A stretch of 64,000 nt of DNA from Dendrobates tinctorius (GCF_039654945.1 NW_027361806.1:3596001-3660000), one strand, 5' to 3'; positions 3,434 to 15,991 are shown, counted from the stretch's first letter. A program made the numbers and translations. Notes: generated by a model not told the origin, from the letters alone.

Positions 3434-4139
3434 GGCCGGAGTCGCACTAGCGAAAAAAAACGGACGAGTGCAATGTGATAAAAAATCGCATCGCACTCGG
3501 CCCAATGTTAATCTATGGGGCAGCTCCCATCATCCGATTTTTTCTCGGCCGCTTTAATCCGTCTGAGAAAATCGCAGCATGCTGCGATTGTCACCGATTA
3601 TCGGATCGGACTCGCCAATGCAAGTCTATGGGTGCGAGAAAAAATCGGATTACACACGGACCGTGCGTGTGACTTGCGAGAAATACGCACCCGGTGTCCT
3701 TTACAAAAGCCGGCAATTCAGTGCTCAATACAGTAAAATCACACTGACATGTTTAATAAAGAAGCGAAAGAATAGATATATACATGTTATTGAGACACAT
3801 ATATATATTAAATTAATATTTCATAGAGATCTACATAGCAGAATAGCCTCTAAATCAATTGCTTTCCCCCAACTGCGGGCAAAGCCTAAAAGCTTTACTG
3901 CGCATGCGCCGGTTAACTATGACCCGGAAGTATTTCGTTGGGCAAAGCATACTACGTGTGCGCGAGGCAAGATTGCATTGCACACGTGCGGACTATGGCG
4001 TACACCTACTCAAATTCCAGAAAATATTACAGAAGGCGGCCAAGGATGGGGAGGAGGAATGGATAGCAAACACCGCCCATCGGACCGGACAGGAGTCATT
4101 TAAATAGCCCGCCAAATTCAGGTGACAGATTCCCTTTAA
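3434..4139. mobile_element. Composite of MITE remnants (Harbinger-like left end, Kolobok/T2-like right end)
   Basis: TTA|GGCCGGAGTCGCACT start resembles the other TWA-flanked MITE ends in the window; ...GGTGACAGATTCCCT|TTAA end. The partner ends were not found. Confidence 0.4.
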
Positions 4140-9711: not shown

Positions 9712-10568
9712 GCTGCAACCGAACCATAACATTATCACGTCATCAATGTATCTCCCCCACCACAGAACATTATCCAAAAAGGGATTATCCATAGTATATA
9801 TGTATTTATTTTACCAAAAGGACATATATAAATTGGCTAAAGTAGGAGAAAATTTACACCCCATCGGGCAACCACACACCTGAAGATAATACTGAGTATC
9901 AAATTTAAAAAAATTTGTGCTCAAAAGATGTTGCAATGCCATGATAATGAATCTTTTAAGATCAGAACTGAAATTGCTTCTCTCAGTCAGAATAGTGGAG
10001 ACAGCAGATAATGCCAAATCGTGAGGTATACATGAATATAAAGCAACAACATCACATGTTATCCATGACGTTGGTATTGTCAAGTGATTTACCTCAGGGG
10101 AGACCAAGCATCTTGACTTTCCCCCGTTACCCCTGCGTGACCATGAAAACCCCCACCCCTTCATCGGCGCCAACAAAGACACGGACACGAGTATTTTCTT
10201 TGGAATTTTTATGGCCACAGCAGCCTTTTATTAAACCAACAAAAAACAACAGTAAACACTGTATCATAAATAACACATAACACATAAGTACAATGACTTG
10301 AGCACTGAAAGGAGTAGTCCTTGAAGCCACAAGATCATGGTGAAGTAGTCCAAAATACTGTGAACAAACCCTGTCCATTTGCTCCCAGCCGTTACCCCAC
10401 AGGCTCAGGAGCACCAGCACACCAATAGATATTGTCCACGAACTACTTGGAGATCCGCCCACTTCCGACGGAAAACTCCCCATCCACCTTTCACCAGATC
10501 ACGACCAGCATACCTTTTAACGAAGGAGACCCTACACACCGAGTCTCCAAAACCAATTTCCACCGACT

Positions 10569-11035
10569 TCAAGGACTCCCCCCTCCTCCAAAACCGCCAC
10601 AACGAGGGGGCCTTGAACACCTGTTAACGCTGTTAACTTTTATCCTGGCCCGATTAACCTTCTCCAACGATCTCATAGACCGCCAACGCCTGCGTGGCAC
10701 AATCTCAGACCACACAATAGTGACCCCCCGGTACATCAACCACAACCTTAAGCAATCCTGCTTAATGTCCTTGATCAACTCCCAAAAGGGCCGAACCGCC
10801 AGATAGTTACCCCCAGCGTGAATAACGAGAATATCTGGTTCCCAGTCCAACCGGGATCATTCATGGATCTCCGGCAACACCCTTCGCCACACCAGGCCCC
10901 TGAACCCGAGCCACCGCACCACCGTCACGGCCCTGGGAATCCCCAGCTGTCTGGCTTCGTTCCTGACATTGGCTCGCAATGCTCCCCAATAAACAAAGGA
11001 GTGACCAAAAATCCAGACCAGCAGCGGCTCAGCAC
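10569..11035 (-). pseudogene. Ngaro SGNH hydrolase ORF (one in-frame TGA), preceded by a splice acceptor
   Basis: VWIFGHSFVYWGA..VRWLGFRGL..PDILVIHAGGN..IVWSEIVPR. There is no ATG; the frame starts right after TTTTATTGTTTCAG. Confidence 0.8.
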
Positions 11036-11159
11036 CTGAAACAATAAAACGACACTGACAGAAAAATATACTTGCAGCATAAATTTAACGCCAACCCACT
11101 CAAACTTCTGTTCGTCCCATGTTCACGACCAACCAAACCCCCCCTCCCTTTACAAATTA

Positions 11160-12020
11160 AAGTCGAACGTAACTGCGGTACCGATTGGACCTCCACCCCC
11201 CAATGCGCTGTATTAAAGAGGGATCTAAACCACCTCGGTCGCCGCTCCTATCCTGAATAAATGAGAGGCAAAGCGGGAGTCATCTATCCCCAAACACCGA
11301 ATGGATTTTTTAAAAACCGCGCCAAACTGATACCGAGACAAACTGCCCCCGTCTGCGTGGCACAACAAGGAACCACTCAAACTGGGACAAAGCTCCCAAA
11401 AACTCTGCAAGCACTGAACAGGGCACATTAACGAACCAGACACGCCACCCAACACCACCCGGCGGCCTTTCCCGGACTGGTCCGTTTTGGACCGTCGAAG
11501 CCAGAATTCAACCCCCCGTGAGGTCAATACATCCCTGGCTAACAAGCCACCCATCGACTCTTTATTGGGAGACACAAGCTCCCCCACCCGCAAAGCCCCA
11601 AAAAATGCAAACGAGAAGGCCAGGCGAAACAACAAAACCTCATATCGATCCGAACAGACTCCAGAACCCGACCCAATTGCTCCAATAGATTAAAAGATAC
11701 AGGCCGTCTTAAATCATCCCAGCCTCTGAGACGGCGGAAACCTTTTGTCGCCTGTTTGACCAAAAATGTTTTCGTCAAATCCCTGCTCCCGCGCAACCGA
11801 AAACCAAAAGACAAACCCGCTAACAAGCGCGTTACCTTTGCACGGGACCAACCCTCCCTCACACCTTGCCCCAACCAGGACAACAACATTCTCTCCTGAT
11901 CAAGCCTGGCCCAACTGGTTTGGCCGGCCGTAAGGACCTCTTCCCACATCAGCCACACTGCCTGGTAAGCCTCCCAAGTTTTTGGTGCCAGTGACGATTC
12001 AATCAGCGACTCTGCGGCCA
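11160..12020 (-). pseudogene. Ngaro tyrosine recombinase, frameshifted
   Basis: SLAPKTWEAY, FFGALRVGEL, LRRSKTDQSGKG, CPV, SHLFRIGAAT and G.WRSNRYRSYVR motifs. Confidence 0.88.
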
Positions 12021-13600
12021 GTAAGCCACCCTCCACAGCTCCTCCAGACAAGTTAGACCCTCGATCTCTGCTTCCGGAGCCAAAGAACGAAAACGATCCC
12101 ACTGCGAATGAGAGAGAGAGTCAGCTATCTCGTTCCTCACGCCGGGCACGTGCGTCGCGGTTACATGGGCATTCAAAGACAAACACAATAGCACCAATTG
12201 CTGTAAAACTCGAACAACTGGAGGGGATGACGCAGTAAGACCACTAATCGCGCTCATAACGCCCATGTTGTCGCAATTAAAATGAACACGCCGGTTCCTG
12301 AAATCCTGCCCCCACAAATGCACCGCCACTAGTATCAGAAAAATCTCCAACAACATGATGTTGCGCACCATAGCGGCCGAAACCCACGTGTCAGGCCATT
12401 GAGCCGCACACCATTTCCCTCTGAGATAGGCGCCAAAAACAATCCCGCCAGCCGCGGCCGTAAACAAATCCAATGCATCGTTACCTACCACCTCCGCCAT
12501 TACCAAAGAGCGACCGTTGTACTCCTCCAAAAAGGACTCCCAGACCGCCAAATCGGCCCTGAGCTCCGATGACAACCTAACAAAATGGTGGGGAGCCAGA
12601 ATCCCCGCAGTAGCGCTAGCCAGCCTACGCGAAAAAACGCGACCCATCGGCATAACCCGACAAGCGAAGTTAAGCTTCCCCAACAGTGACTGAAGATCTC
12701 GCAACAATATTTTCCTCAAACGACGCGCTCGGACCACTTCAGACCTCAAATCCACTAGCTTGTCCTCAGGTAACCTGAATTCCCATTCAACTGTATCGAT
12801 GACGATCCCCAGAAAACGCAAACACATGCTAGGGCCCTCTGTTTTTCCGAACGCCAACGGGACACCGAAACGATCAGCCACACACTCAATGGCTTTCAAA
12901 ATCCTGAAACAACACCACGAATCCACTGGACCAACACACAAAAAGTCGTCCAAATAATGAATAACCGAGTCGAAACCGGAAACGTCGCACACGACTCACT
13001 CGAGAAAGGAACTAAACGCCTCAAAATACGCACAGGACAACGAACAACCCATAGGTAAACACCTATCCACAAAAAAACCTGCCTTCCCAAAAACAGCCCA
13101 GCAGCTTCACGCTTTCGGGGTGAACCGGTAATAGACGAAAAGCGGATTCGACATCAGTTTTTGCCATAAGGGCACCGCGACCACATTTTCGCACCCACTG
13201 AGCCGCCTCGTCAAACGAAGAGTATACCACCGAACAAATCTCCGGATCAATGCCATCGTTAACCGACCTCCCACGTGGGTAGGACAAATGTTGAATGAGC
13301 CGTAACCACCCCCAAAGGGGAAACCACCAAATCTGGAAAAGGAGGGGAAACGAAAGGGCCAGCCATGCGGCCCAACAAAACTTCCTTTCTGAGTTTCTCA
13401 GAAACAACTGCGGAATGCTCCAAGGCTGAGCGCAAATTTTTTAAAACTAACAGGATTTCAAACGGAGGACCCGGAATGCGAAAACCCTCCTTAAAACCCG
13501 TATACAACAACCCCGTTCTTTCCCTATCCGGGTACCTATTTAGATAGGGAACCATCCTTTCCAGATTCACTGGAGTCTCCCCCTTGCGAATTTCCACCCC
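12003..13600 (-). pseudogene. Ngaro RT/RNase H, frameshifted
   Basis: GFKEGFRIP, RLIQHLSYP, AKTDVESAFRLLPVHP, HYLDDFL, FLGIVIDT, LLGKLNFAC, CDNMGV and HVPGVRNEIADSLS, spread over three frames. Confidence 0.9.
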
Positions 13601-13643
13601 CAGCTCTGGACTTCCCTTTCTTGAAACACTTTGACGCTCCATG

Positions 13644-15532
13644 TCAGGCGCCATTACAATTAGAGCAGAGGTGTTTGAATTTACAATTCGCCCCGAACTT
13701 ACACTGGCCGTCATTAAACTGCCAGCACACCCCCGCCTTGTGCGTTCCTGTCTGCCCTTGACCTCTGCCACCCGTAGAGCTGGAGTTGCCGCTACTCTGG
13801 CTGGTGCTTCCAGCCCCCCCATGAAAGGAGCTTCCAAACTTATTTTGAGCTATCACGCGCATCCACAATCCAATATCTTTTTGGTCCCAGCGAATAGCCG
13901 GACGCACAGCCTTCCTCTGACGGAATTGCTCATCGTACCTCAGCCACGCCTGACCGCCATACACTCTGTAAGCCTCCCCTATAGCGTCCAGATAACAAAA
14001 CAGCGCTGAGCAATTGTCAGGGGCCTTTTCCCCAATAACGCTTGCCAAAATGGCAAAAGCTTGTTGCCAATTCACAAATGTCTGAGGAATCAAACGCCAC
14101 CTGCACTTTTCCTCCTCCTCCTTCTTGCTATCCTCTTTCTTGCTTTTGTCTAAATTAAACTTCTCAAGAGGCAGCAACGAAAATATTTCCACATAGTCAT
14201 CCTTCCAAATCCGCTCGTTCACCTCTTTTTTTAAGTGAGCCCCCAACGAACCTTCAAAGCACACGTACACCTCTCCATGCGCCCGATCATCTAAATGCAC
14301 GCGACACTCCTTCTCTTTTTCGGTTTGTATCAACAGAGATACTGGCTCGCCAGAGCGGGGGCCCGGCTCTAGACCGCTCTGACCAGATGACCCCCCAACC
14401 TGCGACCCAACCCACGCTGCTACCGGCGATGACCCGACAAAGCCCCACTCCAAGCGTGACAGCAAACTACGCACATCCGCAAGCAAAACACACACTCCCC
14501 TAGCAGAACATAGACCGCTCAACCCAGCCCCCACCCCAACACCACTAGGTTCAGCCAAGGGCCCCCTTTCCACCACTGAGGAAGACAAAAGCGGGTGACA
14601 AACAGGGGACATGGACACATACTCACAGGGCTGCGAGGGGGCTGTGTGCCCTCCAGCCGGAAAGCCTGGATCCCCCGAAGCCTCGCGGACCTCGTGACTC
14701 ACGGTAGTGGACTCGCTGCCGCGTTGCTGGCCCCCGAAAATCCCCGCAGTGAGGACTGGGGTGGGAGGCCTGAACCCCTGGAGTGAACCAGGCAGCGGTA
14801 CCCCAAAAGCTGAAGCCTCCTGGCTCCCCCCGCCGGCGGCTCCTGGCGGTGTGCCGTCCTGTCGCACCCGGGCGTCCTGGGCCCCCCACGAAAGCTGGGA
14901 GCCCGAAATCGTCCTCCTGTCTCCTACGCTTCTTGCAGCAGGCACCAACCCCGCCATGCTGCCTGGCACTCCCGCTGCAGCCCCAGAGCTGGAAGTTCTG
15001 GTCGCCGTTTCTGAGGCAGGCACAGCTGAGGGGCCTGCGCAGCGGCGCCCCCCCCGCCGAAAACAATGCCCCCACACCGCTGGGGGACGATGAAGCAGGC
15101 CCTCGGAGCTGGGGAGGCAGGCCGCGCGGCGTGCCTGTCACCGCCGCGGCCCCCCGAAGGAGCAGGGGAAGTGTGATGCCCGGCGCGTGCTGGCTCCGCC
15201 CCCCTCCTGAACCGAGGTGGAGGCCCAGACACCGCCGCAGGGCCTCGCTGCACCCGAGGATTCCTCCCAGGCCGCGACACACAGGAAGGGGGAGTGAGCG
15301 TCGCGCGACCTGGAGGGTCCCGGGAGGGGCTCCTGCGGCGACGCGAGGCCCGGGGAGCGGTGTCGGGTGAGAGCCGTTCCGGAGGCCTCACCCGCCTTGA
15401 TCTGCTCTCCCTTCCATCGGCCTGCCCAGAGGTACCTGGAAGCAGGCCTGCGACTTGTGCCTCCAACCATCCCGGAGGCTGCCCCAGCGCTGCAGCCTGC
15501 AGCCGATCAAGGGTCTCTTCTACTCCTGCCAT
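13644..15532 (-). pseudogene. Ngaro ORF1 (gag-like), frameshifted
   Basis: Starts MAGVEETLDRL at 15532 and shifts frame into the 477-aa ORF with IWKDDYVEIFSLL, WLRYDEQFR and the CWQFNDGQCKFGANCKFKHLC zinc finger. Confidence 0.8.
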
Positions 15533-15991
15533 CCCGGTGAGTGGGTGATACTGCTTTGGAGCTGGGAGAGCGGGAACAGAGGGCGGGAACACCCCCAACC
15601 CTCACCTAAATACCCCCTGGCTCCCCCTCCCTGTTAACTCCTCAAGCCATTAAACCCTCCACCCCCCACCCCCCCCCCCGTCATGATGGCCTCCGCCCAC
15701 ACCTCCTATGGGGGGCTGGGAGTCCGGCCATTTCTTGTATGATGTGGCCCCCATGTGACCTCCTGGAGTGCATTCAATAGCTGTTTAGTATCTCTAATGT
15801 GACCTGGTGTCCTCAAAACCAATGGTTGTAGTTTTTGATCTATCCACTCTGAGAGCCTTTCATTAACCCCTCCAATGCCGGCCACTATGGGCCTAAAGGG
15901 TGGAGGGAACACGCCTTTGTGGGTTTTAGGCAAGGTGTTGTAAAACAGCATCCTCAAAAACACAATGAGAAAAAGAAACTAATTTACCTAA

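Follow-up and report, generated by a model that had tools for sequence, protein, structure and literature searches.

The SGNH esterase of Ngaro retrotransposons, whose hydrolase ORF has been known since 2004, is probably produced from a spliced subgenomic mRNA that joins the leader of ORF1 to the SGNH exon. Splicing would link the phase-1 donor that closes the ORF1 leader with a phase-1 acceptor located just past the tyrosine recombinase (YR), thereby removing the gag core, the reverse transcriptase (RT) and YR. The unspliced RNA would constitute the genome as well as the source of Gag, RT and YR, while the spliced RNA would encode a second ORF1 isoform of ~450-500 aa, comprising a helical N-terminus, a disordered Arg-rich linker and a catalytically intact esterase. 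This fusion, proposed in a sequence-only reading of a single Dendrobates tinctorius copy, is supported by the conservation of both sites and of their phase, by database gene models and by an intron-less locus, L113, and we infer the splice event for the D. tinctorius genome. Literature searches yielded no description of a spliced Ngaro hydrolase and no account of how the ORF is expressed, and a spliced form is not mentioned in the available portions of PMC9210276, PMC7192593, PMC5408684, PMC3905857, PMC9341512 and PMC8547959.

The window copy and the splice sites of its family

The window, a stretch of 64,000 nt from D. tinctorius (GCF_039654945.1 NW_027361806.1:3596001-3660000), contains on its minus strand an element that spans ~15737 to 10066 (Table 1). 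Its split direct repeats, its ORF order and the location of SGNH after YR identify it as a Ngaro element (order DIRS). Gag, RT/RNase H and then YR follow each other in overlapping frames, in the Ngaro order, and the A1-...-B1-A2-B2 arrangement is present, with A2-B2 recovered in 13 of 39 siblings within the fetched range. A1 and A2 are 92-97% alike inside sibling copies, and only A1 and one B are kept in the window copy. In Pfam searches RVT_1 scores above cut-off in sibling L060, the YR match of sibling L069 is Phage_integrase at E 0.0019, below cut-off, and the HSFRIG and RWxS motifs of YR are present in L082; the SGNH domain, which follows YR as in amphibian-type Ngaro elements, gives Pfam matches below cut-off. 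The copy is inserted in an older RT-like element, presumably Penelope-like by its motifs, whose frame is broken by the insertion and whose interrupted parts lie at 15960-15740 and 10066-9730 of the window. Several other Ngaro copies sit within tandem repeats (L104, L108).

Table 1. Features of the Ngaro copy in the window
Feature	Position	Strand	Remarks
A1 split direct repeat, element 5' end	15543..15737	-	matches A2 repeat of 13/39 siblings
Exon 1 coding part, ORF1 leader, ~300 codons	14627..15532	-	frameshifted in window copy
Splice donor, phase 1, exon end 14627	14621..14627	-	sequence and conservation among copies
Inferred intron: gag core, RT-RNase H, YR	11036..14626	-	3591 nt; most siblings ~3590-3610
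Second, proximal in-frame acceptor, 51 nt past donor	14575..14586	-	candidate site; 36 nt in other families
ORF1 gag core and CCCH zinc finger	13644..14626	-	premature stop at end in window copy
RT-RNase H, broken	12003..13600	-	YLDD at 12956-12945
Tyrosine recombinase (YR), broken	11157..12120	-	stop at 11159-11157
Pyrimidine tract and splice acceptor, phase 1	11035..11060	-	20 nt ahead of SGNH Trp codon
Exon 2, SGNH esterase	10569..11035	-	GHS at 11006; TGA at 10859-10857
3' repeat region (B)	10066..10599	-	AATAAA at 10232-10227; A2-B2 missing from window copy

The window copy is dead and cannot make a leader-SGNH product, so the question of splicing concerns the family and not this copy. 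Its ORF1, read from the ATG at 15532, shifts frame near 15100 and meets a stop at 14924. From its SGNH, ~195 nt have been deleted at 10630/10622, with loss of the D-x-x-H region. In siblings L058 and L042 the ORF1 leader is open from the ATG to the donor; it carries a predicted N-terminal helix pair, an R-P-P-x-R-L-S-P motif and a low-complexity linker.

The donor, CCT/GTGAGT at 14627/14626, falls after the first codon base in the gag-core frame, and the acceptor, TTTTATTGTTTCAG/GT at 11036/11035, likewise cuts the SGNH frame in phase 1. The pairing of a phase-1 donor with a phase-1 acceptor, the 3591-nt intron and the in-frame join postulated for this copy are thus all borne out in the sequence. 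A search of the D. tinctorius genome (6.36 Gb) for siblings, in which 40 of 733 candidates were scored and 39 besides the window copy were fetched, revealed that donor and acceptor both recur, in 33-38 sibling copies. GTGAG is present at the donor in 34/34 copies that hold the region (33 siblings plus the window copy; the region is missing in 6/39 siblings) and the acceptor AG is intact in 37 of the 39 copies in which it was mapped, counts that are not independent, as siblings share recent ancestry and sites in related families are also kin. When YAG sites are ranked by pyrimidine content, the acceptor comes first or second among 141-210 sites in each of the six elements scored. The donor/acceptor pair of the window family exceeds chance.

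Two details of the sequence-only reading require adjustment at the level of the family. Divided by 3, the intron length leaves a remainder of 1 in 18 of 33 copies, of 2 in nine and of 0 in six; since it varies, the 3n length of the window intron is an accident of decay, irrelevant to the join, even though the length of 3591 nt was itself correct. Likewise, the APSQP-C join is in frame as described, but Cys is not the typical junction residue, because the base preceding the donor is G in 28/34 copies and the residue is therefore usually Gly.

Conservation in other families, gene models and distant elements

Conservation extends to other families, represented by 40 copies fetched among 91 matches to a distant protein. 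Their SGNH DNA is 62-65% identical to that of the window family, with synonymous sites saturated. Judged from the sequences, SGNH is under purifying selection (dN/dS of 0.06-0.11 between subfamilies; dS saturated between families), and the catalytic GHS, GGND and DGxH motifs are intact in 38/40 copies. A pyrimidine tract and AG are located exactly 20 nt before the Trp codon in 38/40, the same distance as in the window; the two exceptions comprise one copy with a 1-nt indel and one with a deletion. The GTGAG donor was found by motif at the homologous position in 28/40 copies, and its phase is 1 in 14 of the 15 copies whose ORF1 is open from the donor position to the gag core. The split codon encodes Gly or Cys depending on the family, and Ser in P0030; as all are N-GT codons, the GT is kept while the residue changes. 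The prediction that donor, acceptor and phase would be conserved among copies and frog families therefore held despite synonymous saturation, and pol is flanked by an in-phase donor and acceptor, as for an env-type subgenomic mRNA.

A search for longer SGNH relatives returned 18 proteins. Most of them are NCBI models in which the ORF1 N-terminus leads into a low-complexity linker, frequently into QP plus G, D or V, and finally into SGNH. Of 256 proteins collected, 82 consist of the ORF1 N-terminus plus SGNH without gag core, RT or YR; among 150 representatives at 50% identity, 40 match a profile of the ORF1 N-terminus, and in 39 of these 40 the gag core, pol and YR are missing. Those fusion proteins that were traced to their source come from NCBI or MetaClust gene models and may be predictions; NCBI isoform sets rest on transcript alignments. 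Leader-SGNH models derive from at least ten frog genera, often from many loci (Bufo, Rana, Hyla, Hyperolius, Eleutherodactylus, Rhinoderma, Dendropsophus, Engystomops, Leptodactylus and Xenopus). The alignment of fusion models left out the L074 and L089 rows.

Comparison of spliced and unspliced forms locates the point at which they diverge. The Logan-derived matches are all unspliced, with complete ORF1s and short SGNH frames among them, which counts against the splice; their complete ORF1s read QP-GE at the junction position. Fusion P0239 aligns with the full ORF1 P0031 from residue 1 to QPG, where the alignment ends, and within one Rana cluster the unspliced contig ORF P0054 and the spliced model P0044 part at the split codon; P0112 and P0032 gave weak local matches only. 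In Hyla, a fusion model and a model of the gag core alone carry consecutive gene numbers on equal-sized contigs, as expected if one model sits in the intron of the other. The 11035/14627 joint is not among the 15 of 103 joints listed from four of six runs; none of the four is on record as RNA.

A metagenome scan yielded 15 loci with SGNH domains ~28-37% identical. A phase-1 acceptor lies just ahead of SGNH in L111, L112, L114-L118 and L120; L119 and L122, which are degenerate, keep the acceptor sequence, and L121, L123 and L124 are fragments. L115, a full element, displays a phase-1 donor, CCAG/GTAATG, at QP-G together with a phase-1 acceptor, and its leader ahead of the donor comprises 125 Arg/Gly-rich residues. 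On another metagenome contig, L113 (5040-5867) presents an open, intron-less leader-SGNH frame without RT or YR. Its 91% identity to the unspliced L118 starts exactly at the acceptor CAG, and an open leader precedes it, which makes L113 a candidate processed copy of the spliced RNA, with the appearance that reverse-transcribed spliced RNA would have. The L113 leader recurs in L121 and could not be linked with a complete ORF1 from the L113 family. A TATA-like box is located upstream of the L113 frame.

In the D. tinctorius genome, exact junction motifs of an intron-less copy gave 0 matches against 70, and 0 against 226, for the unspliced motifs (296 in total); in this genome, therefore, either spliced RNA seldom returns to DNA or none is produced. 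L070, with a 518-aa frame, was considered as an intron-less copy and rejected: its frame passes from the gag end into SGNH, with the junction between look-alike motifs, and it is consequently read as a deletion rather than a splice. A look-alike motif of 14 nt is common to the gag end and the start of the SGNH exon (L070:5600-5700; L108).

Alternative routes to an SGNH product

The alternative that survives best, although we consider it unlikely, is that a genuine acceptor is spliced chiefly to some other donor, later in ORF1, in the 5' UTR or in host genes, with the QP-G donor serving only a short proximal intron. A proximal in-frame acceptor is indeed kept, 36 nt past the donor in 25/28 copies and 51 nt past it in 26/34; in the Bufo isoforms P0234 and P0237 SGNH is preceded by an additional ORF1 exon that starts at a similar proximal site, and the host model P0018 uses the SGNH acceptor. 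However, most fusion models join directly at QP-G, the isoforms with the extra exon still yield leader plus SGNH, and vertebrate introns are very rarely as short as 36-51 nt. It is possible that the proximal acceptor (window 14626-14575; L082, L108, L092) defines a very short intron or a cassette exon.

Translation of SGNH from a start codon of its own in the spacer, by reinitiation or from an internal promoter, is less probable still. The SGNH frame was described as lacking a start codon, and this is true of the window copy but not of its family, since an in-frame upstream ATG is present in 17/39 window-family copies; the same applies to 13/40 copies of other families, and gene callers applied to contigs report short SGNH ORFs with their own start (P0054, P0249, P0251, P0086). 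Yet 27/40 other-family copies have no in-frame ATG, including the young, near-intact L082, L098, L101 and L104, the spacer ATG is variably placed where it occurs, and the apparent N-termini of the short ORFs are translated pyrimidine tracts. Least credible is a YR-SGNH fusion through read-through of, or a frameshift at, the YR stop: a spacing of 121 nt, the most frequent in the window family (17/33 copies, seven of them near-identical), does place SGNH in the YR frame after the TAA, with ~41 open codons, but elsewhere the frame offset from YR to SGNH is spread over 0, 1 and 2 (15, 13 and 10 copies of other families), an in-frame stop usually lies 12-30 codons ahead of the Trp, and spacer length varies freely while the acceptor is fixed 20 nt from the Trp. 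The spread of offsets, together with the copies devoid of an ATG, therefore argues against both the read-through and the own-start routes.

The predicted esterase isoform, related systems and possible host capture

A structure model of the fusion product that splicing would generate, built on a 25-sequence alignment, places two helices at residues 2-30 and an SGNH fold, both with confidence, and a disordered linker. Structures that match this fold include GDSL enzymes and 4c1b, the ZfL2-1 esterase (E 4e-7). With its short helices, linker and SGNH domain, the model shows none of the traits of env (signal peptide, transmembrane anchor, fusion protein). A sequence search of the PDB gave no match under E 0.2, the viral contigs searched gave no match, a protein atlas search with the leader gave no usable match, and complex prediction for two leader copies (residues 1-40) scored 0.06. 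If ZfL2-1 ORF1p is a guide, membranes or lipids would be the target of the esterase, which might be recruited to the Gag particle through the leader common to both; this role is conjectural.

In retroviruses and gypsy-type elements the env mRNA joins a 5' donor to a post-pol acceptor, and the unspliced RNA serves as genome. The analogy with env drawn in the sequence-only reading stands for the expression route, as one splice would express the last ORF in both cases, but fails for the product: Ngaro, a tyrosine-recombinase retrotransposon, would keep ~300 ORF1 codons and make an esterase-bearing isoform of the Gag leader, not an envelope glycoprotein. The closest described elements, the amphibian Ngaro-like DIRS-53_XT and DIRS-54_XT, likewise have split direct repeats and the gag, RT/RH and YR series, with SGNH as a fourth ORF downstream of YR (PMC9210276). 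In the available text of that study SGNH is a separate ORF "with no proven function", and neither "splic" nor "intron" occurs in its main text. According to the accessible part of PMC3905857, ZfL2-1 ORF1p, from the L2/CR1 LINEs, similarly combines a helical N-terminus, an Arg-rich part and a C-terminal SGNH esterase that hydrolyses esters and binds liposomes, although there the esterase belongs to a contiguous ORF1 before pol, whereas the Ngaro layout would be spliced over pol and YR. The bdelloid Vesta elements also have an esterase in the env position, a GDSL/SGNH ORF3, but they are LTR elements, and a gag-leader fusion was not found in the available portion of PMC5408684. Conserved alternative splicing in plant Ty1/Copia GAG RNA likewise derives two products from one retrotransposon RNA; as described in the accessible part of PMC5580714, that splice gives Gag alone by early termination, in contrast with the Ngaro splice, which would bypass the gag core and lead into an accessory ORF at the 3' end. 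The splicing mentioned in the available part of PMC7192593 concerns a reporter intron.

At L110 (4036-4677) a phase-1 acceptor opens an SGNH exon of Ngaro type that has no RT or YR upstream, and exons of this type form the C-terminus of long cold-shock (CSDE1-like) proteins (P0166, P0180, P0189, P0198); the L110-type exon has likely been domesticated. P0065, P0070, P0090 and P0092, of 1300-3100 aa, contain three to six Ngaro-type SGNH-like stretches and are possibly domesticated and repeated. P0018 is a KRAB zinc-finger gene model with an exon that starts at the Ngaro SGNH acceptor. In the leader-SGNH models P0017, P0203, P0204, P0242 and P0245 the catalytic motifs are altered or CCCH repeats have been added, and host co-option of the spliced product is possible. 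In P0197, from Anolis, and the similar P0188, a different basic leader is joined to a Ngaro-type SGNH, so the leader-SGNH pattern may extend to lizards.

A wider proposition, tentative and on balance doubtful, is that animal Ngaro elements possess an ancient two-isoform ORF1 system, in which Gag and a leader-esterase share an N-terminus; the esterase would join the particle and dock it on membranes, as a substitute for env that could move elements between cells, and its acceptor would repeatedly have let host genes capture the esterase exon. Dozens of RefSeq frog "genes", annotated as collagen-like, mucin-19-like or IF-2-like, are re-identified as transposon products. The splice defines the actual protein for study and provides a junction that can be scored in RNA data. 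If true, it would add tyrosine-recombinase retrotransposons to the elements with subgenomic splicing of the retroviral kind, with a splice-built protein that converges on the ORF1p-esterase layout of LINEs, and would explain how the long-unexplained last gene of Ngaro, usually without a start codon, is expressed.
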